Counted from the first letter of the stretch, positions 11,081 through 45,910 are shown. The stretch: 64,000 bases of DNA from a virus (IMGVR_UViG_3300005099_000066:1-64000); one strand, 5' to 3'. Notes: generated by a model not told the origin, from the letters alone. Made by a program: numbers and translations.

Positions 11081-11096
11081 CTATTCCCTGCCCTCC

Positions 11097-11405
11097 CTAT
11101 GTTTGTAAAACATCAGGATAATAGACTTTCAAAATTACAGCTGTTCCGTATCCTGACCAACCAGTATTTAAAACTATATATGGTTGCAAAATCCACTGAC
11201 CTTCTACATCTATATCTCCCTGCTTTGTCACATAGTATACATGTGAATCATCTTCAATAGTAGCAGTCCACTGTCCTACTTCTCCATTAGGCTTTCTGTA
11301 TTTAATCTTTACACTGGAAATGTCAGATTGAGTCACAGTAATACCCTCAAATTTTAATTCAAACCTTATTTTCGTTCCAACATCACCAACAAATACTTTA
11401 CCCAT
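11097..11405 (-). CDS. BppU-N-like Ig-fold baseplate/virion protein
   Basis: GDVGT...KYRKPNG...YYVTKQGDIDVEGQW pattern. Confidence 0.6.
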   Translation of the reverse strand: MGKVFVGDVGTKIRFELKFEGITVTQSDISSVKIKYRKPNGEVGQWTATIEDDSHVYYVTKQGDIDVEGQWILQPYIVLNTGWSGYGTAVILKVYYPDVLQT

Positions 11406-17825: not shown

Positions 17826-17827
17826 TA

Positions 17828-18172
17828 TTAGTCCTCCTGGAATTCTACATTTATATAGTTGAGCCAATCTGTAGGGAATGTTTTCATAAGATAATCCTGT
17901 ATTGTTTGTCTTATAAATTCACTTATTTTTCTCCTTCTTATGTAAATGTCTATATAGGAATCTTCATTCATTTTGTCAACACGAGGTTCTACAACTATAC
18001 ATGATTCACTTCCAACTTGTTCCTCTGCAAATGTTACAAAATCCTTCAGAAGTGCAATAAATACATCTTTGTCAACATTTATGCTATTTACAAAGTTTTC
18101 GAAGTCATCTTTATTACTCACAATTACAGTTGTTTTATCTGTCAAAAATGAAACAAATGTTCCGTAATCCAT
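17828..18172 (-). CDS. Hypothetical protein between the two ATP-grasp genes
   Basis: AGGAGGTGG RBS; tiles. Confidence 0.6.
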   Translation of the reverse strand: MDYGTFVSFLTDKTTVIVSNKDDFENFVNSINVDKDVFIALLKDFVTFAEEQVGSESCIVVEPRVDKMNEDSYIDIYIRRRKISEFIRQTIQDYLMKTFPTDWLNYINVEFQED

Positions 18173-18182
18173 GTTCCACCTC

Positions 18183-19424
18183 CTAATACAAAATTCCTTC
18201 AGTTTGAGAAATCCATTGTTTTATTGTGCTAATTAAATCCTTATCATAAAACTTACCCTCAAAGTCTATCCAGTTGTTTGCTATGTCCAGAATTTTCTTC
18301 CAGGCATTGTCAACTGTTTTGTCATTTACCATGATTAAGCCAACTAAATCATCTCCTGGAATGAAATAATAATTATTCTTTACTTTAGCAACTCTTCTAA
18401 ATTCCCATTCTCTTAAACACTCCATATCTGGATTATCAAACATCTTTCCAGTTATTTTTAACCATTCGTCAGTATTTTTAGTAGCCAAATACAAACCAAC
18501 AAGCCAATTACCATTTACATTCCAGGGCACAGATTTTGCCTTTCCTGTTGCAATATGATATAGAAAGTCTGTATAATTTTTCAGGTATTTAGTCCAGAAT
18601 AAAGACAATGACTGAGCAAATCTGGAAGTAATATCAGTAACATATAGATTTTTATTTTTATCCATAAATCCTTCCAGAGAAAAGGGACCAGTGTAATTTG
18701 ATGCTTCCTTTTGACTAAATATCTTTTCTAATATTCCATTCCACAAAGATTTTTCAACTATCTTTAAAATATAGCCTGTTCCAGTAGCAAGTCCTACAGT
18801 GTATGGTTTTAGAATTTTGCCTTTGGATACCCAGACATCACATCCCACTTCAATCATATTTCTCATGTTTCTTTGTATTATTATAGGAGAAGTCTCGGAG
18901 AAGGGACCAATTGCACTTCTTAATTCTTCCAGCTTTGTTTTAGTATTACTATCATCTTTGGCATACCATGTGTCAATATTACCTCTAAAAATAGAATCAA
19001 CTTTTACCCAACAATCGTAATTGTATTGTTTAATTAAAACATAGGCTTCATCTACACCTTTAGCAATTTTGTATTCAGGAACTTTAACACCTATCTTATC
19101 AAGAAATTTGTAGCCTCTTGATTTGGAAATTTCATACTGTTCTAATTCTGCTCCAGACACGACATAATTTTTCTCAGATTTTAAGTAATTCACAAAATGC
19201 CCCATTCCAACATCAACAAATACAAGCAAATCGTAATTGTCTAACTCTCCAAAATCATATATTCTTCTGAATGAATCAAAACCCATACCTATTGCATATT
19301 CTTCCAGTCTTGGAAAGCCTTTTGAAATAGGAGTAAATAAATACACATCATGCCCATCAAAAGCCATTCTTGTGGCTTGTCCAAGTCCTGCAAATCCCTC
19401 TGTATCAACTACTAATATTTTCAT
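18183..19424 (-). CDS. Second, divergent PurD-like ATP-grasp protein
   Basis: MKILVVDT..G...A.RMAFDGHDVYLF parallels the paralog's MKYLIVDTG..A.RLANEGEEVYYY; IEVGCD, FSLEG, TDITSRF. Confidence 0.7.
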   Translation of the reverse strand: MKILVVDTEGFAGLGQATRMAFDGHDVYLFTPISKGFPRLEEYAIGMGFDSFRRIYDFGELDNYDLLVFVDVGMGHFVNYLKSEKNYVVSGAELEQYEISKSRGYKFLDKIGVKVPEYKIAKGVDEAYVLIKQYNYDCWVKVDSIFRGNIDTWYAKDDSNTKTKLEELRSAIGPFSETSPIIIQRNMRNMIEVGCDVWVSKGKILKPYTVGLATGTGYILKIVEKSLWNGILEKIFSQKEASNYTGPFSLEGFMDKNKNLYVTDITSRFAQSLSLFWTKYLKNYTDFLYHIATGKAKSVPWNVNGNWLVGLYLATKNTDEWLKITGKMFDNPDMECLREWEFRRVAKVKNNYYFIPGDDLVGLIMVNDKTVDNAWKKILDIANNWIDFEGKFYDKDLISTIKQWISQTEGILY

Positions 19425-20344
19425 TCTATTAAATCTATTGCGTTATTATAGTAGAACTCTATAAGATTATCAATTTCATCTATAACAGCATCAAAGAATT
19501 TTCTTTCTTCTTCAAATAATTTGATATTATATCTGGAAGCAACTATATCCACATTTCCCTTTCTCCAAAATCCGTCAGGACAATAAACTAAAACATTTTT
19601 ATCTCTGAATAAACCAAGTTCAAGAAGTGTTATAGGGGATTTTGTTCCAGGCACAAAGTAATAAATATTTATATCAGTTAATTCCTGACTCATCAATTCC
19701 CATTCAACTTGTTCTCTAAAATATGGATTATTTATGCTTTGTTCCCACGAAGAATCCCAGTCATCTCTGCGAGGATTTACTATGAAGACAATATATGATA
19801 ATTCGTTGTCTTTTGCATAATTTTTCAAGTAGGAATATATATGGTTTGTTAACCTTTTTTGCCAATTTTCAGCTGTTCCCATCTCAATAGAACCACCCAG
19901 AAATATTGAAACTGGAAATTCTCCTATATCAAGAAAGTAATTATACAAAGGTTTCCATTCAGTAGGAGCTTTTATTTCATACAACAGAATCTTTGTTGTT
20001 TCATTAACCAATTTTATTTCATTATCATTCAATTCAGAATCTTCTTCGAAATTTTTTAACAGAGTATCAAGAAAAAGCTGTTTTTCTGTTTTGGATAGAG
20101 ATTTGAGATATTTTGTTTTGAATTTATTAAATGTGTTTTTATTCATAAGAATTTTTTCAATAGCAATATCTTTGAAAATCAGAGTGTCCTTTAAATAATC
20201 TGGAAGAAACAGTTTTTCTGCTGCTTCATTTGATTTTTCCAAAAAAGCCATAAGAAGATTGTAAATTTCTTTTTCAGAAGAAGGTGTTTCAGGGAAAGTA
20301 ATTTTGAAAATCGAAGGCTGTTCTGTTGGCTTAAATTCCCACAT
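19421..20344 (-). CDS. Nucleoside 2-deoxyribosyltransferase-like protein (C-terminal domain) with an N-terminal extension
   Basis: IFLGGSIEMG.AENWQ...NPRRDDWD...QVEWEL...SPITLLELG...CPDGFWRKGNVDIV. Confidence 0.85.
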   Translation of the reverse strand: MWEFKPTEQPSIFKITFPETPSSEKEIYNLLMAFLEKSNEAAEKLFLPDYLKDTLIFKDIAIEKILMNKNTFNKFKTKYLKSLSKTEKQLFLDTLLKNFEEDSELNDNEIKLVNETTKILLYEIKAPTEWKPLYNYFLDIGEFPVSIFLGGSIEMGTAENWQKRLTNHIYSYLKNYAKDNELSYIVFIVNPRRDDWDSSWEQSINNPYFREQVEWELMSQELTDINIYYFVPGTKSPITLLELGLFRDKNVLVYCPDGFWRKGNVDIVASRYNIKLFEEERKFFDAVIDEIDNLIEFYYNNAIDLIE

Positions 20345-24297: not shown

Positions 24298-24699
24298 ATG
24301 AAAAATATTTTTATTGTCCATAGGTGTTTGATGTGTGGTGAATGTTGCAAAAAATCCAGAGTTCATATGACGGAAGAAGAATTCAAAAAAGTTCCAAAGA
24401 GATTTCATTTTCTTTTTCACAAAGTATATGTGAAAAGTAAGGATGTTATTTTGTATAAAGTAAAAGTTCGGGATATGGAAACGGGAGAGTTAATTGCTTG
24501 GAATTCATTTTTAGAGGTTATGGATGATAAATATGTTTGTGGGGCTTTGATGAATGATGGAAAATGTTTTCTTCATCCTTACAAGCCTCAGATTTGTAAA
24601 GATATTTGGTGCAAGAAATCTGAAATAAGCATTTTTAAGTTTGTTTTAGAAAAGTTGAGGAGGGTTAAAAGATGGATAAAAAGAAAAAAGATTGGGTAA
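24298..24699 (+). CDS. YkgJ-type CxxCxxCC cysteine-cluster protein
   Basis: CLMCGECC...CGALMNDGKCFLHPYKPQIC. Confidence 0.8.
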   Translation: MKNIFIVHRCLMCGECCKKSRVHMTEEEFKKVPKRFHFLFHKVYVKSKDVILYKVKVRDMETGELIAWNSFLEVMDDKYVCGALMNDGKCFLHPYKPQICKDIWCKKSEISIFKFVLEKLRRVKRWIKRKKIG

Positions 24700-24913: not shown

Positions 24914-25114
24914 ATGAAAAAGAAAGAATTTGTCCAGCACGGGTGTAAAATCCGTGTTGAACGCACATCGCAAGGGGCTTTAAAGTATTTCTATTTCTGT
25001 GCAAAATGCGGGCGTTCGATTAAAGAAGCAAAATTTTTGAGTGAAAAGGGGTATTATGAGAGAATAACTACATATAAATGCCCATGTGGAAATATATACC
25101 GAATATATTCATAA
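24914..25114 (+). CDS. Small zinc-ribbon protein
   Basis: CAKCG...CPCG; AGGAGGTG RBS. Confidence 0.6.
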   Translation: MKKKEFVQHGCKIRVERTSQGALKYFYFCAKCGRSIKEAKFLSEKGYYERITTYKCPCGNIYRIYS

Positions 25115-25155
25115 TTTCATTTCTTTTGCAAATAATAAAAAGGAGGTGTAAATAT

Positions 25156-25599
25156 ATGAATCCTTTGAAAAAATGGTATGTTGAGTTTGCTGTAAAAAGG
25201 ATGAAGATATTGAAGAAGTATAATCTCAAGACAGCATACGATGTAGCAAATTTTTTCATTAAGAGCAATCTAATGGAGAAAGAACCTGATTTTTGCCCTC
25301 TATTTAAGTCAGGTAAAAAATGCCATGATATTCCTGATGATGAATTGAATTGTTTCTTTTGTGCTTGTCCATACTATGATTTTGATAAATGGGATGAGGA
25401 TAAGAAGGAATTTGGAGGATGTTTAGTTCATTCTAAAATTGGATTCAGAAACGAGTATGGTTATTGGGACTGTTCGGAATGTGTTGCTGTTCATAGGAAA
25501 GTTTTTGTTAAAACAATTCTTGAAACTAATTCAGAATTTCTAAAACAATTGATAAAGGAAGCTGAAGAGTTTAAAAGAAAGAAATCTGAGAAAAATTGA
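25156..25599 (+). CDS. Cysteine-rich small-domain (zf-like) protein
   Basis: FCPLF...KCH...NCFFCACPYY...WDCSECVAVH; start moved to ATG 25156 after AGGAGG. Confidence 0.7.
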   Translation: MNPLKKWYVEFAVKRMKILKKYNLKTAYDVANFFIKSNLMEKEPDFCPLFKSGKKCHDIPDDELNCFFCACPYYDFDKWDEDKKEFGGCLVHSKIGFRNEYGYWDCSECVAVHRKVFVKTILETNSEFLKQLIKEAEEFKRKKSEKN

Positions 25600-31516: not shown

Positions 31517-31683
31517 GAGACAAGTATGCATTGTATGATTACTAATCATTTACCTTTGAGATTATGGAGTATGTTAGACAGCATAAAAACTTTGAAGAAA
31601 GCTCCAAAGTATGATGGCCACACTTCAAAAGATGTTGTCAATTGCTTGGAAGAGTGGATAAGAAAGCATTTGAAGGGGCAATC

Positions 31684-32094
31684 ATGAGAGAAAGAAAATT
31701 TAAGGGTAAAGCTGTTAATGATTATCCTCATTTGAAAATAAAAAGAGGAGATTGGGTGTTTGGTTATTTGGCGGATGAAGATGTAATAAGTGTTAAGACT
31801 TACATGGATGATTACGGTGATTTAAATTGCGTTCTCGTGCAGGTAGACCCTGAAACTGTGTGTCAGTATACCGAGTTAAATGATAAGAAAAAGCAAGAAA
31901 TTTATGAAGGGGACTTGGTAAAGCATTCAGATTATCCAAAAAATATTTATGTTGTTGTATGGGAGTATGCGGGTTTTATGTTAAAGTTAATTGGTTCAGA
32001 TGATTATTTGCTTTGTGCTGATTGGGAATCAGAACTTGAAGTTGTGGGTAATATTCATGATAATGTTGAAATGTTAGGGATGCAAAATGTTTAG
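31684..32094 (+). CDS. YopX-family protein
   Basis: RKFKGK...WVFG...VDPETVCQYTELNDKKKQEIYEGD...EVVGNIHDN. Confidence 0.85.
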   Translation: MRERKFKGKAVNDYPHLKIKRGDWVFGYLADEDVISVKTYMDDYGDLNCVLVQVDPETVCQYTELNDKKKQEIYEGDLVKHSDYPKNIYVVVWEYAGFMLKLIGSDDYLLCADWESELEVVGNIHDNVEMLGMQNV

Positions 32095-32171: not shown

Positions 32172-32957
32172 GTGAGTATGGATTGTATAATTACTAATCT
32201 CATTATGTATTATAAGAATGGTATTGGAAATACTATGGTAGCAGGACATATAATAGGAGAAATGATTTGCACTGCCATAAAAGATATAATTCCTGATATT
32301 GACTACTCCCTTGGTTGGGCAGAAGCTGGTATAGATACTATTTGTTTCTGGAGTAACAGTCATCAAGTATTTACTTCTAATTATGAGAATAAGGTAAGAT
32401 TTGAAGAACTCATTATAGAAGTTTTCCCAGAACTCGAATACAATATAGATACTCCATTTGGCATTTACTTGGATAAGGATGAAGCTGAACAAATCAAAAA
32501 CAAACTTTGTGAACTTAAAAATATGGGTAAGGATGAAAGTGGAACTGATTTTGTGGATTTAAATGGAGAAACAGAAACAACAATAATGGGAAGAATAAGT
32601 TTTAGAGCACTGGCTCCTGTATTGAAAGGAAAAGACAAGGGTAAGCTAAAATGGTTTTACAATATTCTAACGGATGGAAGTGCGGTTTATATATACGCAC
32701 CAAATATGGGAATTCAGCCTTTAAAGGATGTAAAAGCTCTTTGTCGTTCTGTTAATTATTGGGATAAAAATGATGTTGAAATTTATGAAGGGGACATTCT
32801 CAAAACTAATATTGATTATATGCCAACTTATGTAGTCAAAAGTGTGGAACAGTTTTGGGTGGATAGAGGACTTTGCGAAGATTTTGAATTTGCGGAGTTA
32901 GAAGTAATTGGTAATATTTTTGAATCTGAATTGAACAAACAAGAGGAGGAATCATGA
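32172..32957 (+). CDS. Unknown N-domain fused to a C-terminal YopX-like domain
   Basis: ISFRAL...DKNDVEIYEGDIL...LEVIGNIFE. Confidence 0.65.
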   Translation: MSMDCIITNLIMYYKNGIGNTMVAGHIIGEMICTAIKDIIPDIDYSLGWAEAGIDTICFWSNSHQVFTSNYENKVRFEELIIEVFPELEYNIDTPFGIYLDKDEAEQIKNKLCELKNMGKDESGTDFVDLNGETETTIMGRISFRALAPVLKGKDKGKLKWFYNILTDGSAVYIYAPNMGIQPLKDVKALCRSVNYWDKNDVEIYEGDILKTNIDYMPTYVVKSVEQFWVDRGLCEDFEFAELEVIGNIFESELNKQEEES

Positions 32958-33520
32958 TGTCAATGAGAAAAATTATTTTTGCTTATGTAATGGAAATTTT
33001 GTTGTTTGTCTCTGCGTTTGGAATTTATAAACATATCAATGAGTATAAAATTTTAAAATCCAGAGTCCAGGTTCTTCAGATGTATTATGAAAAGTCACAG
33101 AGCAGACAGAGGACTATTCGTGAAATATCTAATAGCATAGAGAAATTCAATTCCAATTTGACCAATCCAGAGTTGCTTTCATATTCAGTTGCTGTTTATT
33201 ATATTTCGAAACAGTTGAATCTTGATTATAGAATTATTGTTTCTCTTGGGGGTGTTGAATCAAGATGGAATCCAACTGCGAAGTCATCTTATGGAGCAAT
33301 AGGTGTTATGCAAGTTGCTCATCATGTTTGGAGGAAGTATTTTGGTTTTAGAAAGATTGAATTATACAATCCAATCAGAAACATTTATTTTGGCAGTATG
33401 ATTTTCAAATATTATCTTGATGAGTCAAATGGAAATATAAGAGATGCTTTGAGAAAGTATTCTGGAGGAACTCAGAGGGAAGTTTATTATGAAATTGTTT
33501 TATCTTCTTGTGAGAATTGA
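32954..33520 (+). CDS. Lytic transglycosylase (SLT) with N-terminal membrane anchor
   Basis: VESRWNPTAKSSYGAIGVMQV, NIYFG, ALRKYSG. Confidence 0.9.
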   Translation: MMSMRKIIFAYVMEILLFVSAFGIYKHINEYKILKSRVQVLQMYYEKSQSRQRTIREISNSIEKFNSNLTNPELLSYSVAVYYISKQLNLDYRIIVSLGGVESRWNPTAKSSYGAIGVMQVAHHVWRKYFGFRKIELYNPIRNIYFGSMIFKYYLDESNGNIRDALRKYSGGTQREVYYEIVLSSCEN

Positions 33521-33595: not shown

Positions 33596-34438
33596 GTGAT
33601 AATAAAAACAAAAGGTAAAGTTGGATTTAATCATAATGGTGAAACATTGTTAGAGGCTTTGAAAATAACTGACGAGGAAGTTGAAAAGTTTGATGAATAT
33701 CTGGAGAAATTTTTGAATGAGCAATCTACAGAAGAAATTCCTCCGAATGTGTTGTTGCTTATACTGTATATTGTTGGGCATATTTTTATATTTCCTGACC
33801 TTCTTGTTTCCGAAAACACTGTTTCTTTTATGAGATGGATATTGTCTGTTTTTTACGAATCTAATGAAGTAGAAGTAAATGTCCCTGATGTTATTGAGTT
33901 GGAAGAAGCTGATTTGGATTTTGTTATTGTTAAGCCAGATATTCTTAATTATATATCTGAGATGGAAAAGATTTTTTGGGGAAATTTGAGAACCAGTGAG
34001 AGAATTGCTGTTGCTTATGAAAATTTTGGATATGAAGGAGTTTGTTTTCTATCTTTTGTTGTAGCTGGTATCAGAATGTATGGTGCTTCTTGTGCTGTAT
34101 TTTCGAATAGTGTAATTGAAGACTTTTTGGAGAACTTTTCAGATAAAGACAAACCTGCTTGAGGAGGCGTTGTTATGATGCCAAAATACAAAGAATGGAT
34201 TTTGGGGATTATATTGAAATTTTTTCCGAAGTATTTTAAAAAATTATCAGAGAGAACATACAAAACTGAGATTGGACTTACGGGTCATGTTAGTGACATT
34301 GATAAAATGGTGGCAAAAGAGAAAGGTCTTAAGCCTCTTAATGTGTTTGAAAGATGGTTATTGAAAGAATTTATTGCTTATGAGAAAAAGAGATTACAGC
34401 GAAATTTCAAAACAATTTTGGAAGAGTATGGAATATGA
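33596..34438 (+). CDS. Two hypothetical proteins (33596-34162; 34175-34438)
   Basis: RBS-preceded ORFs. Confidence 0.55.
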
Positions 34439-35250
34439 TAAAAACAAAATCGTATACTATGTTGCCAATTGCTGATGTGAAAATGAAACATTTGAAAGAT
34501 TTTAAGTATTACAACACAATTACTTGGTTGAGGGATGGATTTAAAGATTTATACCCAGAAGAATTTGCCATAGTGAAAACAACTTGGGGTAGATTTAACC
34601 TTGGTATGAAAATTGTAAATAGTTCTGATGTTCCAGTTGATAAAGAGAAAACATTAAAAGGATGTTCTACTTGTCCTGTATTTATTCAAAAGAAAAATTG
34701 GTCTTGTCCTCCTTTGTTTAATTCAACATTTCAAAAACAATTAATAAAAGGAGGTAATCCTGAAAAAATAACAGTGGTTTGGATGAGAACTTATTTGCCT
34801 CCAAGACTTGTGTTCTATTTGAATAATAGTAGATTTATTAAATATCTAAATTCAGGTGTTTCTAATGTTGAAGAGAATTATTTTGATAAGTGGTTACATT
34901 TCGTAAGAAAGAAAACAGAATATTATACTCTTGGTGCTGGTTCTTGTAGAGTCTGCAAACCTGCTTGTGCTGCGAAATATGGATTGCCCTGTAAAAATCC
35001 GAAGTATAGACAGCCTTCTTTAGAATCTGTTGGGGTTCTTGTTAATGAATTGATGGAGAATATAATTGGATACCCTATGTATTGGGAAAGGAGAATTTGT
35101 AAAGTTGAATTGAAGTATGAAATACCTTTATGGTATTGGTTTGTTGGAGTCATTTTTTCAAATGAATTGGATAAACAATTTTTGTTTGATGTTTTTGTTG
35201 AATCATCTAAATGTAAAGAAAAGGGATGGATATGTTTGAAAAGATTTTGA
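34435..35250 (+). CDS. DUF2284-like predicted metal-binding protein
   Basis: C..CP...NWSCPP...GAGSCRVCKPAC...PCKNP...PSLESVGVLV. Confidence 0.75.
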   Translation: MIKTKSYTMLPIADVKMKHLKDFKYYNTITWLRDGFKDLYPEEFAIVKTTWGRFNLGMKIVNSSDVPVDKEKTLKGCSTCPVFIQKKNWSCPPLFNSTFQKQLIKGGNPEKITVVWMRTYLPPRLVFYLNNSRFIKYLNSGVSNVEENYFDKWLHFVRKKTEYYTLGAGSCRVCKPACAAKYGLPCKNPKYRQPSLESVGVLVNELMENIIGYPMYWERRICKVELKYEIPLWYWFVGVIFSNELDKQFLFDVFVESSKCKEKGWICLKRF

Positions 35251-35282
35251 TGGAAATAGAATCTAATAAAAAGGAGGTTATA

Positions 35283-35549
35283 ATGATTTTAAAATTTTCG
35301 AGAGAAGAAATTCTTGAAATAGTTAGCAATTTGGATAAAATAGAATTTTGTTTGAAGCAATTGAAAAATACTGGAATTGATGATATAAAATTGTATTTGT
35401 CCCCACCAGGTAGTGATGATGTATTTTTGTATTCTCCAGATGATGTAAATTCAATGCTTGGATTTCTTGGTTCAATTGAATATCATGCTAAAAAAGCAAA
35501 ATTAGTAATTTTGGATAAAATAAAAACGACAAAAAGTAAGGAGGTGTAA
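35283..35549 (+). CDS. Hypothetical protein
   Basis: ATG 35283 after AAGGAGG. Confidence 0.55.
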   Translation: MILKFSREEILEIVSNLDKIEFCLKQLKNTGIDDIKLYLSPPGSDDVFLYSPDDVNSMLGFLGSIEYHAKKAKLVILDKIKTTKSKEV

Positions 35550-35552
35550 ACC

Positions 35553-36083
35553 ATGGCTATATCATGCTTTGGAATTTTGTATGATGAAAAAGACCCAAAC
35601 TGCCAAATTTGCTCTCTCAGAACTCTCTGTAGAAATGTTATGGAGGGTTCAATAGAATGGACAACTGCTTTAAAATTCATTGAGGCAGCAAATGTAACAG
35701 AAGAACAAAAAGCTGAGAAAAACGAACTAATCAGGCACATAAGAGCTGAAATCAAGAAAAGAAGCTCTGCTGAACAACAGAAAAAGTCAGTCGAAAAACC
35801 GAAAACAAAACTTGTTAAGAAACCGAAAACTAAATCTGAGTCTGAATCTTTGCCTTTAACTGAGAATGAGGAAAAAATTATTTCAGAAATATCTGAATTT
35901 GCTGGCGTTCCTATTAGAATAAAGAAATACATTCCCAGACCAAATCAAGTTATGATTCTTGTGTCTTGGCCGAAGTTCAAAGTGTATATAAACAGAGATG
36001 GAACTATTACTCTGCTGAAGCCAAATATGAAGACAATAGCAAGAAATATTTCTCCAAAAGATATACAAAATCATCTTTCGTAG
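35553..36083 (+). CDS. Hypothetical protein with N-terminal four-Cys motif
   Basis: SCFGILYDEKDPNCQICSLRTLC. Confidence 0.6.
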   Translation: MAISCFGILYDEKDPNCQICSLRTLCRNVMEGSIEWTTALKFIEAANVTEEQKAEKNELIRHIRAEIKKRSSAEQQKKSVEKPKTKLVKKPKTKSESESLPLTENEEKIISEISEFAGVPIRIKKYIPRPNQVMILVSWPKFKVYINRDGTITLLKPNMKTIARNISPKDIQNHLS

Positions 36084-36089
36084 AAGAAA

Positions 36090-36749
36090 ATGAGACTGAT
36101 AATATCTCCACATTGGGATGATTTCTTTCTTTCAGTTCCTTTGGATTTGATTGTAGATTCTACTGTTGTTATTGTTGCTGGTTACAAAATAAAGTTTGCT
36201 AAAGATGTCCTCTCTGAATTATTTGTTAAATATAATGTAAATTTCGAATATTTAAATTTGGTTCAGCCAAGAAGGAGATGGATGAAAAATGAAGGTTCTA
36301 CATGGTGGTTTGTTGATGATTTGGCTTTTGAAATTGCAAAGAAGATAAAGAAATTGAATTTGGAAAAGTTCAATGAAATCTACATTCCTGCTGGTTATAT
36401 ACATCCTTATCATTTGTTGGTTGCTAATGTTTGTGTTCATATTATGGATATAAAGAACAGAATTATCTATGCTGATAGACCATATTATGATTTGTTAAAA
36501 AACAACATACAATATAATACACAGAAAGGTTTGAAATGGATGTATGAGAAATGGATTTCTAATTGGAGTCAGAATATTATGCCGTATTTTCCTTGGGGTG
36601 GAGGACCAGTTGTTGTTAATTTAGATAATTGGAGAAGAGAAGGAAAGTTGGTTCCTTTTGATATTGCTTATGATATAGTAAGATTTGTTGAAGGAAAATC
36701 CTTTGTTTTAAGAAAGCCTGATGATGAGTGGGGCTATGTTTGGAAATAG
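36090..36749 (+). CDS. PIG-L/LmbE-family de-N-acetylase-like protein
   Basis: IISPHWDD (xPHxDD) and HPYH (HxDH variant), then IIYADRPY. Confidence 0.75.
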   Translation: MRLIISPHWDDFFLSVPLDLIVDSTVVIVAGYKIKFAKDVLSELFVKYNVNFEYLNLVQPRRRWMKNEGSTWWFVDDLAFEIAKKIKKLNLEKFNEIYIPAGYIHPYHLLVANVCVHIMDIKNRIIYADRPYYDLLKNNIQYNTQKGLKWMYEKWISNWSQNIMPYFPWGGGPVVVNLDNWRREGKLVPFDIAYDIVRFVEGKSFVLRKPDDEWGYVWK

Positions 36750-37119
36750 AAATTCTTTTTCTATTTGTATTCAAACTCCGTATACGCTGGAATTTGAGCT
36801 ATCATATGTTTCTTTGTCTTTGAAAAATCTGATAAAAGACACTATGTTAACTATTGAAAAGATTGAGACTATGATTCAGTATGGAAAGCCAAATTCTCAA
36901 TTATTTAATGCTCTTTTACAGCAAAGAAAATTCTTGAAAGAATTGGCTGATTCTGCTGATATGAGAAAGACAGAGATTCTTGGGATTCTGAATAAGGCTA
37001 TGACAAAAGTTGCTTATGAATTTTCTGGTTATGATGATGAGAAGAAAAAACTGATATATGAAACATTTAATAAATTAGAAGAACAAGTAATGCAGATATT
37101 GGAAAAGGAGTTGAAATGA
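36721..37119 (+). CDS. Helical hypothetical protein
   Basis: Overlaps both neighbours. Confidence 0.55.
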   Translation: MMSGAMFGNRNSFSICIQTPYTLEFELSYVSLSLKNLIKDTMLTIEKIETMIQYGKPNSQLFNALLQQRKFLKELADSADMRKTEILGILNKAMTKVAYEFSGYDDEKKKLIYETFNKLEEQVMQILEKELK

Positions 37120-38465
37120 AATATATTGATTATGTTAATTTATGGAGATATTATTTGCTTGAGTATGAAGCTTTTGAAGATTACTTGAGTTCGAAAAAGC
37201 TCCCTCATATGATTATTGTTTATAAGTATGTTGACCAAGCTGGAGGATTGCCTATTGCTGCTTATACAAGAAAGAAAATATGGGAATATGCAGGAGGAAC
37301 TGCTGAACTGGTGGTCATATATGATAGAAAATCTGTTGTTGATATTCCTTCTGGATGGATAAGAAGAAGTAGAGGTTTGTTACCTCCTGCTGATGTAAAA
37401 TTATCAAAGCTCAATTACAAGAGGGGGCTTAATAAACTTATGTCTGAACATGGTGAAGGAATTGTTTATTGGATGGCAGGATTACAGGCATTTAGATTGG
37501 AACCTGAAGTTCTTGAATTCTTTAAAAATCAGAAATCTAAATTTCCTAAATGGTTGTTTTTAGTTGAACATGGGGATATAGGATTGGTTAGAATGAAAGA
37601 AGAAGAATGGGAAGCTTTTATTGAATCTTTTGATTTTGTATCATTTGCTTCTCCTTGTAAATACTACCACTGTAGGAATAGATATAAATTTAAACCGAAG
37701 AATAAAAAATATTTTTCTTTGTTCCTTGTCCCTCTGAAATTTGAGTCTGAATTCGTTCCTTTTTCAGAAAGAAAGATTTTGAATACTTGGCTTTCTGGTA
37801 TATTTGCTTGGAGACATCCTTTTGATTGGTATAATTTTGTTGATGAAAAATACACTTCTTACTTGAAAATTATGAGTCATCAAAGAAGGTCATTTTCAAG
37901 AAATTTTAAACCTCTTGGAGTTAAATATTACGATGAAGCAAAAAGAAGATTTCCTGAATGGTTTGGCAATAGAAAAAATGCTGGGGCTACTTATACTACT
38001 CCTGACAAATTTTCATATGCTGAGTGGAGAAGTATATTGTGGAAAGCTTCTTCTGATGGAACTCCTGGGACTTGGTTAGATGATACAACTCCATTGGAAG
38101 CTATTTGTTCTGGAACTCTTGTTGTTTCAAATTATAGGTTTGCTTCTAATCCTCTTTGGAAGTTTGATGGTGAAAATAATGTTTTGTTTGAAATGGATTC
38201 TGTAACAGCTTTTGAAGCATTTTTGGATGATTTGTTAACAAATCCAAAGCCTTATGAAGATTGGGCAAGATATGTCTGGGGAAGATATTCTTATCAAATT
38301 GTTAGAGGAACACTTACTGCTTATCTTATTTTCACCCTGTATGAAGCTTGGAAATCTAATAAGTTAGATGAATACAAGTTATTTCTTGAGGATGATGAAG
38401 TTTTTCCTCTTTTTGAAAAAGATATAGAAGCTTCTTTAAAAATTATGAGGGGAGGTGAGATATAA
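37116..38465 (+). CDS. GT-B glycosyltransferase-like protein
   Basis: AGGL near the N-terminus, LVEHG, C-terminal TTPLEAICSGTLVVS. Confidence 0.65.
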   Translation: MKYIDYVNLWRYYLLEYEAFEDYLSSKKLPHMIIVYKYVDQAGGLPIAAYTRKKIWEYAGGTAELVVIYDRKSVVDIPSGWIRRSRGLLPPADVKLSKLNYKRGLNKLMSEHGEGIVYWMAGLQAFRLEPEVLEFFKNQKSKFPKWLFLVEHGDIGLVRMKEEEWEAFIESFDFVSFASPCKYYHCRNRYKFKPKNKKYFSLFLVPLKFESEFVPFSERKILNTWLSGIFAWRHPFDWYNFVDEKYTSYLKIMSHQRRSFSRNFKPLGVKYYDEAKRRFPEWFGNRKNAGATYTTPDKFSYAEWRSILWKASSDGTPGTWLDDTTPLEAICSGTLVVSNYRFASNPLWKFDGENNVLFEMDSVTAFEAFLDDLLTNPKPYEDWARYVWGRYSYQIVRGTLTAYLIFTLYEAWKSNKLDEYKLFLEDDEVFPLFEKDIEASLKIMRGGEI

Positions 38466-39732
38466 CATGATAAAGGAGAAACTTCGCTTTGTAAGATGTA
38501 AAGTTTGTGGTTTTCCATATGAACTTCACTGGGAGGAGTGTGAAGGAGAAAGAAATGTCTTTGCCATAAAAACGAACTCTTTTGTTAAATCAGGAAATGA
38601 AAAAAAGTATAGTTTGAATTCGAGATGCCCCATTTGTGGAGCAAAATTTTCTAAGAATTTGGAAGAATGTAGTGATATGGATTATTTTACTTATTATTCG
38701 ATTTGGAATTCTGGTGAAAAATGGATAAAGATTATTGATGATGTTCGTAATTTCAATACTGTATTCGCAAAACATGACAAAAATATTTTTGTGAAGTTTC
38801 ATAAGGGCAAAAACAATGTTGATTTGTCTAATGAGGATTTGGTAATAAATATGGCCAAAGTTGATTTTGTTGAAATGAAAATAAAAGAGGTTTGTTTTCA
38901 TTTCAGCAATGGTTCTTTGTTAACTTTAATTTTAAAATTACCTCAGAAGGAGGAGAATGATGAACAGGGCACAAAAGAGATTGTGTGAAGAAATATGGAG
39001 GGTGTTGCCTTTCCCTCCGACAGATGTAAAAACATTTGATGAGTATAAGAAGTTTCTATTTAAAACATATGCCATACAACTTGATGACTTTCCTGTATGG
39101 ATAATTTCATATATAGAGAAACATTTTGAAGGCCAGGCTGACGAATCTGAAGAACTTATGTATGGTCCTTAAAAAGGGGGTGAAAAATGAATATACAAAA
39201 AGTAAAACAGGAGTTGGAAAAAGCTGAAAAAATTGTTGAGAATGTTGCTGAAGAAATAAGAAAAAACATGGAATCTTCTGATACTCCGAATTTGTCTGAA
39301 GAAGATATGGAAAAAGAATTCCTTTTTATGCAGGCTATGCGTTTGTTGAATAAGATTGGAGCTATGAAAGATTTTTCCTGGAGACGCATCGAAATTTTAG
39401 AGGACACTCCTATTATATTTAAGATACGAACTTCTTGTGCTTGTGGTCTTCCAGAGGATTCTTTGACTGTTGAATATTACAGAAAGCATGGTGAAGTATA
39501 TTTGTATTTATATAATTATTGGTATGACCATCTTGGTTTAGACCCAGCTACTCCTGCTATAATTTGGAATTTGAAGCGTTTTTGGAATAGATTAAAGATG
39601 TTGTGGAAAATTTTTGTTACGGGAAAATTAGAACTATATGGAGAATTTATATTCGAAGATTTTAATCATCTGAGAGATTTTATTGAAGCATTGAAGACAA
39701 TTAATGCAGAATGGAAGCAGAAATCTGAATAA
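38455..39732 (+). CDS. Three hypothetical proteins (zinc-ribbon 38455-38988; 38957-39172; 39187-39732)
   Basis: CKVCG...CPICG; tiling. Confidence 0.55.
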
Positions 39733-40407: not shown

Positions 40408-42888
40408 ATGTATTCAGAAGGATTTGTAGAATTTAGAGATGCTGTTGCAAGAGAAAAGTATTTTCTTGAAGGAGAAGAAAGCTGGGATGATGTAATAAAA
40501 AGAGTATCAAATGAGATTGGAAATTTTCTCGAAAACAAGTTAAAGCATGAAAACAAGGGAAATTTATATAGGGAGATGTATGGCGACAAATCCCCTTCAG
40601 AAATCTTCTATAACATGATGTCCCAGAATATATTTATTCCAGGAGGCAGAATTCTATATGGAGCGGGCAATCCCAATAAAGTGACATTAACAAATTGTTA
40701 TGTCTTACCTTCTCCAGATGATTCTATTGAAGGTATAATGAAGCTTGCTACTGAAATGGCTTTGACTTATAGGGCAGGCGGTGGAGTTGGATTTGATATT
40801 TCATCCTTAAGACCAGAAGGCTCTCCTGTGAGAAACGCAGCACGAACATCCACAGGAGCCTGGAGTTTTATGGAGTTGTATTCTTTAATAACAGGTATAA
40901 TAGGACAAGCAGGTAGAAGAGGTGCTTTGTTAATAGCTATGGATATATCACATCCAGATGTTCTGAAATTTGTATCTGCTAAATCAATAATTTCTCCCAA
41001 TAATAAAAAGTTTCTACAGCAGGCTTCCTATTTTGGTTGGACTCCAGAACAATTGGAGGCAGCAGAAAAGATACTTACTATGTCACAAATAAGGTTTGCT
41101 AATCTATCTGTGAAACTTACTGATGAATTTATGAAAGCAGTGAAAGCAGGAGAGGAGTGGGCTTTCAGATGGAAAGGGAAAGTTATGAAAACAATGCCAG
41201 CCAGAGATGTGTTTAAGTATATTGCTGAATTTGCCTGGAAAACTGCTGAACCAGGGATTTTATTTGTAGATACTGCTAAAAGATATTCAACAACTGAATA
41301 TTTTTCTCCTATTGTTAATACAAATCCTTGTGGAGAACAGTGGCTTGGAGCTTATGGGAATTGTAATCTGGGGGCAATAAATGTTGGAAGTCCAGTCTTC
41401 TTTAGAGATGGATTTTTTGATTATGTTAATTTTGGTTACTACATAAAAGTAGCAATTTTGTTTATGAATGCTGTAATCTGGTATAATCTTGATAGACATC
41501 CTCTCCCTGAGCAAAAGAAAACTGCTGAAAGGGAAAGAAGAATTGGGCTTGGAATAATGGGATTGGCTGATGCTTATATAAGAAAAGGAGTTGAGTATGG
41601 AGAAGGGAGTTTTACTTCCAAGCTTGCTGAAGTTCTTGCTTATTATGCTTATTCAGCGAGTATACAACTTTCAAAAATATTTGGTTCATTTCCTGATTAC
41701 GACCCAGATAAACATTTTGAACAAGAGTATTATAAAAGACTTATTGAAGAATATCCAGAATTTGAGAATTTATTTAAAGAAGCAAAAGAAGTGGGATTGG
41801 CGAACTCTGCTCTTCTAACAATAGCTCCTACGGGAACTACTTCAATAATGGCAGGTGCTTCATCAGGTATAGAGCCTGTATTTGGATGGAAAGTCCAAAG
41901 ATGGTTTGAAACAGCAGGCAAAATGTTTGAATTTTACCATCCAGTATATTATGAGTATATAAACAATAACTCTGATGAAAAGCTACCTGAGTATTTTCAA
42001 ACTTATGCTGATGTTGATTATAGAACAAGATTGGATACTCAAGCAATTTTACAGAAATTTATTGACAATTCTATTTCTTCGACTGTGAATTTGCCTGAAT
42101 CTGTTAGTGTTGAAGATATAGAAAATCTGTATATGGAGGCATGGGAAAAGGGATTGAAAGGCATAACAGTTTACAGAGAGAATAGCAGATTTGCCGTAAT
42201 CAAAAAGAAAGATGAAAAGTCAGAGGAAAAACAAGAAAAGAAAGAGAAAAGAGAAGAACTCAAGATATTTATACCTGCTCCAAAAAAGGCAGGGCTTGAA
42301 GGAAAAAGATATAGATTCAAATATAAAGACACAGGAATATACATAATGGTATTTGGAGAAAACAATGTTCCCAGGGAAGTATTTCTGGGTAGTAAAAATT
42401 TGAAGTGTTGGGATTTTGCTATTGCTTTGAATACAACTCTGTCAGAAATTCTCAGAAGTCTGCCTGAGGATTTGGCAATAACATTTGCTAAAAGAATGGT
42501 GAAAAAGTATAAATCATTATCTACGGGAGATTCTGCTTTTATATTTGGAGAGAAGCTTGGCTCAGTTGTGGGATTGTGGGGTTTGGCTTTGGATTGGTAT
42601 ATGAATGGAATTGACCCAAATGAACTTGAGGAAGAAATAAAGAGAAGCCTTCTAACAGTGAACATCCCAAATAAGCCAAAGCCTTCTCTAAAAACTTACA
42701 ACAGCAGTTTTGTTGTTTTATATGAGGGATTGGATTTGAAAAATGGAGCAGAACTTCCAAATGACGCAGTTATTTCGAGATGTCCTTCTTGTGGTGCTAA
42801 ACATATAACAAAGGGAAGACCATATTCGTTTGATTGTGAACATCCCTGTATGGTTTGTGGTTATTCAGAAAAATGTCCAGGAGATTGA
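40408..42888 (+). CDS. nrdJ: Class II (adenosylcobalamin-dependent) ribonucleotide reductase
   Basis: PGGRIL, TNCYV, GGGVG, RRGA, TNPCGEQ, CNLG, IAPTGT, KGITVYR, C-terminal Cys cluster; no small subunit seen. Confidence 0.92.
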   Translation: MYSEGFVEFRDAVAREKYFLEGEESWDDVIKRVSNEIGNFLENKLKHENKGNLYREMYGDKSPSEIFYNMMSQNIFIPGGRILYGAGNPNKVTLTNCYVLPSPDDSIEGIMKLATEMALTYRAGGGVGFDISSLRPEGSPVRNAARTSTGAWSFMELYSLITGIIGQAGRRGALLIAMDISHPDVLKFVSAKSIISPNNKKFLQQASYFGWTPEQLEAAEKILTMSQIRFANLSVKLTDEFMKAVKAGEEWAFRWKGKVMKTMPARDVFKYIAEFAWKTAEPGILFVDTAKRYSTTEYFSPIVNTNPCGEQWLGAYGNCNLGAINVGSPVFFRDGFFDYVNFGYYIKVAILFMNAVIWYNLDRHPLPEQKKTAERERRIGLGIMGLADAYIRKGVEYGEGSFTSKLAEVLAYYAYSASIQLSKIFGSFPDYDPDKHFEQEYYKRLIEEYPEFENLFKEAKEVGLANSALLTIAPTGTTSIMAGASSGIEPVFGWKVQRWFETAGKMFEFYHPVYYEYINNNSDEKLPEYFQTYADVDYRTRLDTQAILQKFIDNSISSTVNLPESVSVEDIENLYMEAWEKGLKGITVYRENSRFAVIKKKDEKSEEKQEKKEKREELKIFIPAPKKAGLEGKRYRFKYKDTGIYIMVFGENNVPREVFLGSKNLKCWDFAIALNTTLSEILRSLPEDLAITFAKRMVKKYKSLSTGDSAFIFGEKLGSVVGLWGLALDWYMNGIDPNELEEEIKRSLLTVNIPNKPKPSLKTYNSSFVVLYEGLDLKNGAELPNDAVISRCPSCGAKHITKGRPYSFDCEHPCMVCGYSEKCPGD

Positions 42889-43152: not shown

Positions 43153-43539
43153 ATGAATAAAAAATTGAAAGAATTTTTTGAAAGTCTGCCAAAAATAGAA
43201 GTGCTGAAAATGACTTCCCTTTCAGAATTCGAAGAGCCATTTTCATTGATGTTTGAGTTGTATATGGCAAAGAATAAAGGTTATGGAGCTTCCTGGAGAA
43301 AGAGAGGAATTCCAAGTTCTTTTGAGAATATAAGCAGAAAATATGACAGACTTCTTGTTCAAGTAGAAAAATCTAATTTTCATCCAGAAAATCTTTCAAA
43401 TGAAGAAAAACTTGATTTCTTTGATACGGCAATTGACCTTGCTGTGTATTCATATCTTTTTCTTTGGTTTGTATATGATTTGTTTGGAGAAGAAATAGTA
43501 AAGGAGTGGAGAAAGAAAGTAGGATTGGAAAATGGATAA
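43153..43539 (+). CDS. Nmad1/DUF1599-like all-alpha nucleotide-modification-associated protein
   Basis: KNKGYGASWRKRG...NISRKYDRL...DTAIDLAVYS. Confidence 0.75.
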   Translation: MNKKLKEFFESLPKIEVLKMTSLSEFEEPFSLMFELYMAKNKGYGASWRKRGIPSSFENISRKYDRLLVQVEKSNFHPENLSNEEKLDFFDTAIDLAVYSYLFLWFVYDLFGEEIVKEWRKKVGLENG

Positions 43540-45910
43540 AACTCTGAGAGAAGAATGTAAAAATTGTATATTCTTCAATAATGCGTATGTTCCTCCAGAA
43601 TATCCTTTTGGTGATGAAAAAATTGATGTTTTGTTTATAGGAGAAGCTCCTGGGGTAGAAGAGGAAAGACTTGGAAAGCCATTTGTGGGAAGGTCAGGCC
43701 AATTATTTAGAGATGCTCTTGCTGAATTTATAAAGGAATTTCCTCATCTGAAATTTGGAATAACAAATGTTGTGAAATGCCATCCTCCCAATAATATGAC
43801 TCCCAAATCAGCTGAAATAAAATTGTGTAAGCCTTTGCTTCTTGATGAGATAGAGAAGTATGACCCAGATTTTATAATACCTTTAGGAAACACAGCTCTT
43901 CAAGCAATAGTTGGAAGGGCAGGTATTCAGAAAAATTTAAATCAAGTTATAACTAAAGTTGTTGCTGGAAGGGAGAGAACAATAATACCAACTTTTCATC
44001 CTGCTGCTATTTTAAGAAATCCTCATCTATTACAAGATTTTGTGAGAACATTTGGTATATTAGAAAAGATAATGAAAGGACAGGTTCTTGAGTTGGAGGA
44101 TTTCATAGTTGTAGATGATTTTAGGAAGATTGAAAATATGTTGAATGATTTATCAAATTCTAAAGCATTTGCTTTTGACCTTGAGACTTCTTCTTTGAAT
44201 CCTTTTTCTGAGAATGCCAAAATTCTTTGCTTGTCTTTGTCAAATGGGAAAAATACTTATGTTATCCCTGCTAAAGATTATGAGATGTCTAATCTGATTG
44301 ACTTGTTAAAAATTGTTTTTTCCCTTCCAGCTAAAAAGATTGCTCACAATGCGAAATTTGATGTGAAATGGTTAAAAGTTTTTGGTGTGGAAGTTAAGAA
44401 TCTGGCTTTTGATACTATGATAGCCCACTATTTGATTAATGAAAATTTGCCTCACTCTCTGGCTTTTATTCTATCTGAAATGGGATTTGTTGACCACAAA
44501 GGAGATTTTTCAAGAGCTGTTGGAGGGGAAACTGCTACTTGGAAGGTGTTATCTGATGAAGAAAAGCTTAATGAATACTGGGATGTTCTTCTTGAGTATA
44601 ATGCGAAAGATGCTTGGTCAACTTATTTAATCTATGAGAAATTAAAAGATAAACTCGAATCAAGTCAGGTTTGGTTAATGGAAAATTTTTATATTCCTTT
44701 GATATACACATTTTCAGAAATAGAAATTTATGGGATGAAAGTTGATTTGAATAGAATCCAGTATTTATCCCAGAAGTATAAGAATGAAATGAAGAAAATT
44801 ATATCTGAAATGGAAAATTTATCGTCCGTCAAATTTTGGAAGACTCTACATCCTGATGAAAAATTTAATCCATCTTCGACAAAGCAAGTTGCTGAAATTA
44901 TTTTTGATATAGAGAAATTAGAAGTTATTGCTATGACTCCGAAAGGAGCACCATCGACAAAGAGTGAATTTCTTGAATTTCTTGCCTCGAAATCGAAATT
45001 TGTTAAATTGTTGTTAGAATATAGGAAAATTATGAAAAACGAAACTGCTTTTATAAAAGGCATTCAAAAACATATAAAAATAGATGGATGTGTTCATCCC
45101 TCTTATAATCTTATTGGAACAGTGACGGGCAGAATATCTTGTAGAGAGCCAAACATACAACAGATACCAAAAGATTCAGAAATAAGAACAATATTTGTTC
45201 CAAAACTTGATTGGTTTATAGAAGCTGACTTTTCACAAATAGAGTTAAGAGTTGCTGCTTCTTTGTCTGGGGACCCATATATGATTGATGCTTATAAAAA
45301 AGGTGAAGACTTACATACAAAAACTGCTTCTTCCATATTTGGGAAGAGACCAGAAGAGGTTTCAGAAGAAGAACGATTTGTGGCAAAAACTATTAATTTT
45401 GGTATTTTGTATGGAATGGGAGCAAAGAGTTTACAGGCAAGAGTTTCCAGAGAAGGAATAAATATACCTTTGAAAAAGGCAGAAGAATATATCAGAAAGT
45501 TCTTTATAGCCTATCCTGTTTTGAAAGCTTGGGTAGATGAGCAAAAATCAAAAGTTCTTGGTTCCAGAATGGTAGTGTCTCCTTTTGGAAGAATTAGAAG
45601 ATTAATGGGAACTTCTGATGATGATTTGAGACAGGGTGTAAATGCTCCTGTTCAGGGAACTGCTTCTGATTTAACTTTGTTTTCTGTGATGTTTCTTCAC
45701 AATGAATTTAAAAGGAGAGGTTTGAAATCCCATATAGTAGGTTCAGTTCATGATTCAATATTATTTGATGTGGCTGATGAAGAATTACACTGTGTTGTGA
45801 CTCTAATAAAACAGATAATGGAAGGACTTGATTTTGATTTTATAAAAGTTCCTTTGAAAGTAGATGTTGCAATAGGAAAGGCATGGGGAGAAATTTTAAT
45901 GGAGGTATAA
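43532..45910 (+). CDS. polA: Family A DNA polymerase with N-terminal family-4 uracil-DNA glycosylase domain and 3'-5' exonuclease
   Basis: CxxC, GEAPG, PFVGRSG, VKCHPP, FHPAAILR; FDLET, HNAKFD, YNAKD; ADFSQIELR, AKTINFGILYG, VHDS. Confidence 0.95.
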   Translation: MDKTLREECKNCIFFNNAYVPPEYPFGDEKIDVLFIGEAPGVEEERLGKPFVGRSGQLFRDALAEFIKEFPHLKFGITNVVKCHPPNNMTPKSAEIKLCKPLLLDEIEKYDPDFIIPLGNTALQAIVGRAGIQKNLNQVITKVVAGRERTIIPTFHPAAILRNPHLLQDFVRTFGILEKIMKGQVLELEDFIVVDDFRKIENMLNDLSNSKAFAFDLETSSLNPFSENAKILCLSLSNGKNTYVIPAKDYEMSNLIDLLKIVFSLPAKKIAHNAKFDVKWLKVFGVEVKNLAFDTMIAHYLINENLPHSLAFILSEMGFVDHKGDFSRAVGGETATWKVLSDEEKLNEYWDVLLEYNAKDAWSTYLIYEKLKDKLESSQVWLMENFYIPLIYTFSEIEIYGMKVDLNRIQYLSQKYKNEMKKIISEMENLSSVKFWKTLHPDEKFNPSSTKQVAEIIFDIEKLEVIAMTPKGAPSTKSEFLEFLASKSKFVKLLLEYRKIMKNETAFIKGIQKHIKIDGCVHPSYNLIGTVTGRISCREPNIQQIPKDSEIRTIFVPKLDWFIEADFSQIELRVAASLSGDPYMIDAYKKGEDLHTKTASSIFGKRPEEVSEEERFVAKTINFGILYGMGAKSLQARVSREGINIPLKKAEEYIRKFFIAYPVLKAWVDEQKSKVLGSRMVVSPFGRIRRLMGTSDDDLRQGVNAPVQGTASDLTLFSVMFLHNEFKRRGLKSHIVGSVHDSILFDVADEELHCVVTLIKQIMEGLDFDFIKVPLKVDVAIGKAWGEILMEV

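Follow-up and report, generated by a model that had tools for sequence, protein, structure and literature searches.

Phage DNA that contains glycosylated hydroxymethylpyrimidines is shielded against restriction enzymes as well as CRISPR nucleases, and the enzymes concerned are useful for DNA labelling. In phage T4, gp42 acts as a dCMP hydroxymethylase, and the phage has alpha- and beta-glucosyltransferases and no deacetylase. Base J of kinetoplastids is made after replication by the thymine hydroxylase JBP, a dioxygenase, together with JGT, a glycosyltransferase (GT) of the GT-A type, and its sugar is glucose. Phage GT-B enzymes resembling BshA and MshA add hexose, N-acetylhexosamine (HexNAc) or heptose to 5-hydroxymethylcytosine (5hmC) in DNA, and such GTs occur together with a thymidylate synthase (TS) homolog or a 5mYOX in tens of thousands of viral contigs (bioRxiv 10.1101/2023.12.21.572611). 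In Carin-5, GT genes and a putative N-acetylglucosamine (GlcNAc) deacetylase lie beside the DNA polymerase gene, and the thymidines carry glycans including N-acetylglucosamine (PMC12686479). The present analysis concerns three overlapping genes in the first 64 kb (hereafter called the window) of the 76,948-bp IMG/VR virus record IMGVR_UViG_3300005099_000066, which is linear and about 61% complete as estimated by CheckV. These genes had been predicted to encode a PIG-L/LmbE deacetylase, a small helical protein and a GT-B enzyme that, together with a dUMP-hydroxymethylase-like gene product, might make an amino-sugar derivative of 5-hydroxymethyluracil (5hmU) in the phage DNA. Overall, this original prediction was partly supported. 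What is new is a close relative that lacks exactly the GT-B-like gene and in which the metal site of the LmbE-like protein is altered.

The three genes are co-oriented on the plus strand and encode proteins of 219 amino acids (aa; 36090-36749, LmbE/PIG-L-like), 132 aa (36721-37119, helical) and 449 aa (37116-38465, GT-B-like). The first two genes overlap by 29 nt and the last two by 4 nt (ATGA), and all of them lie upstream of the ribonucleotide reductase (RNR) gene starting at 40408 and the DNA polymerase fusion gene starting at 43532, as had been described. An AAGGAG Shine-Dalgarno sequence is found 5 nt before the start of the 449-aa gene, inside the end of the 132-aa gene. A scan for promoters and terminators gave counts no higher than in shuffled sequences and thus provided no evidence for operon boundaries. 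The 132-aa protein, whose gene overlaps both neighbours, belongs to no family in Pfam or PHROGs.

Only one relative was available for comparison, the metagenome contig Ga0190359_1030839 (L006; 2,284 nt). It carries, in this order, the end of the gene for a 176-aa protein, the LmbE-like gene (231-893 of L006), the helical gene and, after 10 nt, a Zn-ribbon gene. Amino-acid identity to the window was 69% for the 176-aa homolog, in which the C-terminal part is conserved, 75% for the LmbE-like protein and 92% for the helical protein. By BLASTN, nucleotide identity was 83.1% over 35866-37115 and 97.2% over 38467-39477, and exactly positions 37116-38466 are missing from L006, where the Shine-Dalgarno sequence of the GT gene is absent as well. 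As this gap spans exactly one gene and coincides with the jump in identity, the GT gene can be regarded as an accessory cassette, consisting of this gene alone, that lies at a mosaic junction. It is dispensable in this lineage, and the three genes do not form a conserved unit, as L006 keeps the LmbE-like and helical genes without the GT.

The second difference in L006 concerns the predicted active site. Members of the LmbE superfamily share an HxD1D2 motif and a distal His, of which both His residues and D2 are metal ligands and D1 is the general base (PMC4101496). The 219-aa protein of the window carries this HxDD+H motif in full, with H8-W9-D10-D11 directly after the first strand and H105-P-Y-H108 further on. 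The L006 protein (P0003) reads S-P-Y-W-C-D instead, so that Y8 and C10 replace the first metal-ligand His and the general-base Asp. The ratio of nonsynonymous to synonymous substitution rates (dN/dS) between the window and L006 was 0.26 for the LmbE-like gene, 0.09 for the helical gene and 0.22 for the 176-aa gene. The value for the LmbE-like gene is looser than those of its neighbours (0.07-0.13, except for the 176-aa gene) but still indicates purifying selection, and the 132-aa helical gene is the most conserved of the trio. Loss of a His ligand and of the catalytic Asp in the relative without the GT is what would be expected if the deacetylase had no substrate once the GT was gone.

The 449-aa open reading frame (ORF) is a real gene under purifying selection. 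It extends over 449 codons in DNA of 31% GC, pieces of it were found at 92-100% nucleotide identity in sequencing runs of four studies, and one vent variant differed by 14 synonymous and 11 nonsynonymous codon changes (dN/dS roughly 0.24). No contig in four runs joins across the gene; where contig cover is interrupted, nothing can be concluded from it. The protein is an orphan: no homolog besides itself was found either in 5.8 billion clustered proteins or in an exhaustive HMMER search of 1.84 billion representatives, nor in phage genomes or IMG/VR, nothing relevant was found in the PDB by sequence, and the whole protein had no match in Pfam, PHROGs or NCBIfam (the latter two at E<=10). However, the C-terminal fragment had Glycos_transf_1 (PF00534) as its sole Pfam match (profile positions 108-168 of 172; 14.8 bits, with an E value of 0.021 in a search of the whole of Pfam). 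When PF00534 was run against the six-frame genome, it gave a single match at 38088-38273 (13.6 bits, E 0.0017 per genome). The profile aligns to residues 325-386 of 449 with its nucleotide-sugar-binding end, which is the expected C-terminal place.

Further observations point in the same direction. ESM features of the 449-aa protein gave a viral GT cluster (PF00534 19%, PF13524 15%) a score of 0.95 at rank 12, and a BLASTP comparison with the GT of Stenotrophomonas phage DLP3 aligned the C-terminal domains collinearly and weakly (E 0.012). Read by eye, the sequence has GT4-like landmarks, namely a first strand followed by GG and the stretch '...LEAICSGTLVV...' around residues 320-390, which recalls the GT4 pattern '...lEAxxxGxxVV...'. 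Judged from these similarities, the protein is likely a GT-B glycosyltransferase of the GT1/GT4-like type, encoded by a strain-variable accessory gene. The GT-B label of the original prediction is plausible through a weak but specific PF00534 signal at the C-terminus that stays below threshold, and it is less well supported than the LmbE label.

For the 219-aa protein, the motif spacing agrees with the LmbE family. Ligands 2 and 3 are 97-148 residues apart in this superfamily (PMC4101496), and the spacer is 97 residues in the 219-aa protein; a spacer of 98 is implied for BshB and TT1542 by Table 1 of the same publication (PMC4101496). In BshB and related enzymes the second motif is an HPDH box, whose Asp is a Tyr in the 219-aa protein. 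Homolog searches recovered a single relative (P0003), PHROGs and NCBIfam gave nothing at E<=10, and a sequence search of the PDB gave nothing relevant. In the ESM Atlas the nearest cluster is viral (0.95, 194/256 features), and 21% of its members carry PF02585. VIA-align with a weak AlphaFold2 model ranked the LmbE enzyme Dbv21 first (Z 8.2), and BC1534, MshB, TT1542, LnmX and a diacetylchitobiose deacetylase were also in the list. Several LmbE entries were among the matches of the same model in a Foldseek search of the PDB. In BFVD only two matches fell below E 0.001, one to an LmbE-like protein from Campylobacter virus IBB35 (2.6e-5), the other to a phage protein related to GlcNAc-PI-deacetylases (2.7e-4).

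Targeted profile tests of the LmbE label gave P values of about 0.001-0.02. In a single BLASTP comparison, the N-terminal 45 residues aligned to the PIG-L protein gp96 of Stenotrophomonas phage DLP3 (E 0.004). With hhalign, 117 columns were collinear with four phage PIG-L proteins (P 0.021), and H8/D10/D11 and H108 were aligned to their invariant H/D/D and H. A custom hidden Markov model (HMM) built from 22 phage and bacterial PIG-L proteins scored 5.4 bits on motif 1, a score reached by 1 of 2000 shuffles, and hhalign with this HMM independently found motif 2 (P 0.0036) in a match that spans 13 residues only. Taken together, the 219-aa protein is quite probably LmbE/PIG-L-like and is a candidate metal-dependent de-N-acetylase, as predicted from its motif and the fold searches. 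The PIG-L/LmbE label thus stood as far as the HxDD+H motif, the top fold matches and the profile tests are concerned, and a PF02585 match did not accompany it. A reading as a CARF/ring-nuclease protein, raised by the VIA-align scores, was set aside on the basis of the HxDD+H motif and the BFVD ranking.

A TS homolog with the signature of a dUMP hydroxymethylase is encoded at 58484-59503 (plus strand; PF00303, E 1.2e-16), and an all-alpha, dimeric-type dUTPase at 57636-58160 (plus strand; PF08761, E 5e-15). The best phage matches of the TS homolog were Kuttervirus (Ackermannviridae) proteins, one of which is annotated as deoxyuridylate hydroxymethyltransferase, and other TS and hydroxymethylase homologs. 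It was aligned with E. coli ThyA, the dUMP hydroxymethylase gp29 of SPO1 and the Kuttervirus enzyme annotated as deoxyuridylate hydroxymethyltransferase. Published rules for these residues state that dUMP is selected by Asn177, that an acidic side chain at position 143 lets water in, and that Asn at 169 marks a 5-hydroxycytosine (5hoC) synthase (PMC13326640). The TS homolog retains Cys146, Asp169 and Asn177 (ThyA numbering). Like SPO1 gp29 and the Kuttervirus enzyme, it has an Asp where ThyA has Leu143 and is extended at the C-terminus. Since Asp169 is kept, the protein would not be a 5hoC synthase. These features bear out the dUMP-hydroxymethylase-like gene of the original prediction, and the phage probably makes 5-hydroxymethyl-dUMP, and hence 5hmU, by means of this TS homolog.

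The prediction had also stated that no 5hmU DNA kinase was recognised. This agrees with the 77-kb record, in which only three ORFs carry a Walker A motif (RecA-like, SbcC-like and DnaB-like) and no P-loop DNA kinase candidate was found, an absence that is provisional because the record is only about 61% complete. Deacetylation of a base of the acetylaminomethyl-dU type was also considered and set aside, because the record showed neither a kinase nor a transferase of that route.

The favoured reading combines these elements. The TS homolog, aided by the dUTPase, would replace thymine with 5hmU at the nucleotide level, and the 449-aa protein, as a very divergent GT-B enzyme of the GT1/GT4-like type, would take a sugar from a nucleotide-sugar of the host and attach it, after replication, to the hydroxymethyl group that 5hmU carries in the phage DNA. 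Its strain-variable gene would serve in anti-restriction. Should that sugar be a HexNAc, the LmbE-like protein with its complete HxDD+H site may remove the N-acetyl group and leave a cationic amino sugar. That the 449-aa protein is an active GT and acts on DNA is inferred, as are the kind of sugar donated and its deacetylation. That a strain-variable GT sugar-modifies 5hmU DNA is given a probability of about 0.35. The full pathway of GlcNAc transfer followed by deacetylation is less likely than glycosylation alone and rather improbable by itself. Its product, a cationic amino-sugar analogue of base J in which an N-acetylhexosamine is O-linked to 5hmU by the orphan GT-B and de-N-acetylated on DNA by an LmbE-family enzyme, is an unlikely outcome. 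In the full-pathway reading, L006 would be a natural knockout showing that both enzymes work as a pair.

The genomic context is favourable to DNA glycosylation. The genes lie in a co-oriented DNA-metabolism block. No sugar-nucleotide or envelope-sugar families were found among about 60 ORFs scanned, in line with the earlier statement that envelope-sugar genes are absent nearby, and the record held no other sugar, lipid-carrier, membrane or export genes and no GT-A. No integrase was found, and the phage looks lytic. Co-occurrence with TS-like or TET/JBP genes had been proposed as a check; the TS homolog is present in the same record, and no TET/JBP enzyme was found there.

Several results weigh against this reading. 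Both fold calls (LmbE and GT-B) are below every curated threshold. For the 449-aa protein, the PF00534 scores of 13.6-14.8 bits compare with a gathering threshold of 26.4, the single-sequence AlphaFold2 model is unusable with a predicted local distance difference test (pLDDT) score of 33.8, hhalign found no relation to the DLP3-type phage GT family, and the whole record had no match to the T4 alpha-glucosyltransferase (AGT; PF11440, E<=10) or beta-glucosyltransferase (BGT; PF09198, E<=1). For the 219-aa protein, PF02585 (gathering threshold 28.2 bits) matched neither the protein nor the six-frame genome at E<=10, the AlphaFold2 model is weak (pLDDT 48, predicted template modelling score 0.50), showing a Rossmann-like beta-alpha pattern in residues 1-128, and CARF domains reached a VIA-align Z of 8.0, nearly level with the 8.2 of LmbE. 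Furthermore, the TS homolog lies 20 kb from the 449-aa gene, and conservation does not extend to the trio as a whole. In L006, the genes for the LmbE-like and helical proteins are kept under purifying selection without the GT, which argues for a GT-independent role. L006 fits either a deacetylase decaying without its GT substrate or an LmbE-like family function for which the GT and the canonical active site are both dispensable.

Three other explanations have to be considered. The enzyme calls might be right and the target not DNA but a host small molecule or glycoconjugate (a GlcNAc conjugate of the BshA/BshB or MshA/MshB type), a precursor of the envelope, or a protein of the phage or the host, in which case the effect would be remodelling of the infected cell or a block of superinfection. 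This is possible but rather doubtful. Every LmbE enzyme characterised so far acts on a small molecule that contains GlcNAc (PMC4101496), and GT4 enzymes are mostly lipid or small-molecule glycosyltransferases. Surface-polysaccharide roles were proposed by the authors of the DLP3 (PMC7326821) and IBB35 (PMC3322345) genomes, which carry PIG-L/GT or LmbE-like genes, and the persistence of the LmbE-like gene without the GT in L006 can be read in the same way. However, the lack of any further sugar, lipid-carrier, membrane or export gene in the record does not suit such a target, nor does the position of the genes within the DNA-metabolism block of a lytic-looking phage that has a predicted hydroxymethylase to supply the acceptor hydroxyl. 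Similarly doubtful is the proposal that there is no single unit at all, the LmbE-like and helical proteins being a conserved pair with a function of their own, possibly non-catalytic or a different hydrolysis, and the 449-aa gene being an independently acquired accessory at a recombination junction.

The proposal of uncoupled genes is in accordance with the indel of exactly one gene at whose borders nucleotide identity changes from 83% upstream to 97% downstream, with the absence of the GT Shine-Dalgarno sequence at the same place in L006, and with the constraint on the pair in this GT-less relative despite H8Y and D10C. On the other hand, the ATGA overlap and the Shine-Dalgarno sequence embedded in the helical gene indicate co-expression in the phage studied here, a GT and an LmbE deacetylase are a recurring pairing (BshA/BshB, MshA/MshB) that also occurs in modules of cultured phages, and loss of the active site in the one relative without the GT fits coupling. 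Lastly, one or both fold labels might be wrong, so that the 449-aa protein would not be a GT, or the 219-aa protein would be another Rossmann-like domain (CARF-like or SLOG-like) with a coincidental HxDD, and no sugar chemistry would take place. The failure to pass any curated threshold, the low-confidence models, the VIA-align scores of CARF, RCK and other Rossmann domains close to that of LmbE, the 13-residue extent of the custom HMM match and the altered HxDD motif in the only homolog of the 219-aa protein speak for such an error. It is nevertheless improbable, as two separate motifs occur in the right order with family-typical spacing, the LmbE family came out on top in three independent searches (ESM Atlas, VIA-align and BFVD), and PF00534 matches this ORF only in the whole genome and at the expected C-terminal position.

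A DUF2284 predicted metal-binding protein of 271 aa with 10 Cys is encoded at 34435-35250 (plus strand), where PF10050 scored 55.3 bits against a gathering threshold of 25 (E 8.3e-15, profile positions 2-149 of 161). It matched only itself in the set of 5.8 billion proteins, had no PDB match by sequence and had one weak match in the phage collection. Two papers that mention DUF2284 list it as unknown and give no link to sugar or DNA chemistry. While its identity as a DUF2284 Cys protein was confirmed, its proposed membership of the sugar module was not, since it is encoded two genes upstream and shows no tie to the neighbouring genes, and it is left outside the favoured reading. It is followed on the plus strand by an acidic protein of 107 aa (35226-35549) without a Pfam or PHROG family and by the basic 176-aa protein with four N-terminal Cys (35553-36083; phrog_13400 of unknown function, E 4e-9). 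The Zn-ribbon protein of 173 aa (38467-38988, plus strand) marks the downstream edge of the GT indel. Its gene probably starts at ATG 38467 and not at GTG 38455, because the L006 homolog begins at the equivalent ATG and the block of high identity begins there. Neither the 132-aa nor the 173-aa protein had matches in IMG/VR.

Small Cys-rich, putatively metal-binding proteins are unusually numerous in the early block, including a CxxCxxCC protein (PF03692) and a zf-like protein (PF04071) besides those with DUF2284, the Cys4 N-terminus and the Zn ribbon (24298-24699, 25078-25599, 34435-35250, 35553-36083 and 38467-38988). Adjoining YopX-domain proteins are encoded at 31642-32094 and 32172-32957, followed by a protein with an SLT lytic transglycosylase domain at 32954-33520. 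Downstream of the 449-aa gene, a PhageMetallopep protein (PF18894; 39789-40394) also matches phrog_513 'transposase', a label that seems unreliable.

The genome has a GC content of about 32%, and coding strand and GC skew change near 24 kb. From 24 to 64 kb every gene is on the plus strand and the functions are early and related to DNA metabolism. Family scans identified the RNR (40408-42888, plus strand) and, likewise on the plus strand within 24-64 kb, gp32-like, RecA/UvsX-like, SbcCD, RuvC, SNF2 helicase and DnaB-like helicase genes. At 43532-45910 (plus strand), a uracil-DNA glycosylase (UDG) domain, a 3'-5' exonuclease and a family A DNA polymerase are fused (PF03167, PF01612, PF00476), and over 96-99% of its length this protein shares about 30% identity with the polymerases of SPO1-like phages and other Herelleviridae. 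A synteny search based on the RNR found relatives only at 37% identity, too distant for use. Among the late genes, the block at 16473-20344 on the minus strand encodes a 464-aa ATP-grasp protein that is GARS-like (PF01071/PF02843) and a 307-aa protein resembling nucleoside 2-deoxyribosyltransferases (PF15891), both of which could bear on the nucleotide or base chemistry of the phage. An unassigned 413-aa ORF separates the two. Contigs with the stretch around the three genes came from marine-sediment and hydrothermal-vent metagenomes of several studies. In sequencing runs, variants of 35553-39200 were found at 87-100% nucleotide identity, so that several strains co-exist.

If the full pathway were true, an LmbE-type enzyme acting on a DNA-linked sugar would open a new substrate class to the superfamily, and 5hmU bearing an amino sugar would count as a new base of natural DNA; no paper was found that describes either such a base or an LmbE enzyme acting on DNA. 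The GT gene itself is accessory and exchangeable in this lineage of vent and sediment phages, which has hardly any relatives in the databases, and L006 provides a natural H8Y/D10C variant together with a GT-minus genotype.

In cultured phages, modules with a PIG-L protein and a GT have been sequenced. Stenotrophomonas phages DLP3, DLP5 and Summit, Rhodobacter phage RcZahn and Vibrio phage KarBoss share the order PIG-L, epimerase/dehydratase, aminotransferase, methyltransferase and GT, co-oriented in DNA-metabolism regions; the PIG-L protein has about 212-225 aa, and the GT has about 480-510 aa. ParB-like genes adjoin the DLP3 and RcZahn modules. In Vibrio phage V-YDF132, hypothetical proteins lie between the deacetylase and the GT, and a ParB-type 'nucleoid occlusion protein' follows the GT. 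The module stretches compared were 1671-7096 (L007, DLP3), 6001-10792 (L008, RcZahn), 5986-10885 (L009, KarBoss) and 5995-11248 (L010, V-YDF132). The DLP3 authors suggested modification of lipopolysaccharide for their module (PMC7326821), and ParB homologs are known companions of DNA-hypermodification clusters (PMC13229309). The locus described here resembles these modules in that the 219-aa protein is collinear with their PIG-L family and deacetylase and GT genes are co-oriented. It differs in having none of their sugar-nucleotide tailoring enzymes, and their GT family has no hhalign relation to the 449-aa protein. Systems of the Carin-5, YerA41 and SP-15 type, likened here by description only, differ by a hydroxypentyl-phosphate linker and by a deacetylase whose annotation is polysaccharide deacetylase, not LmbE (PMC12686479).

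The metavirome GT-A and GT-B DNA glycosyltransferases share with this phage the pairing of a GT-B with a TS homolog. However, their products were shown on 5hmC, the word 'deacetylase' is absent from the text of the report (bioRxiv 10.1101/2023.12.21.572611), and the likeness is drawn from their description. The BshA/BshB and MshA/MshB pathways use a GT4 GlcNAc transferase and then an LmbE deacetylase, the same two superfamilies as proposed here, and the motif spacing of the 219-aa protein is BshB-like, whereas their acceptors are malate or inositol phosphate and not DNA, and both proteins of the window score far below the family thresholds. The proposed end product resembles base J as a sugar O-linked to 5-hydroxymethyluracil in DNA, although the record has no TET/JBP and no GT-A and the sugar would be an amino sugar in place of glucose. 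The T-even phages differ in using 5hmC where 5hmU is expected here, in GTs of the AGT (PF11440) and BGT (PF09198) families, outside which the 449-aa protein falls, and in the deacetylase-like gene, which is found here only. They are similar in the logic of the proposed route, in which a TS-family hydroxymethylase acts before replication and the hydroxymethyl group, once in DNA, receives a sugar from a GT-B enzyme, and also in that the GT content varies among related phages.

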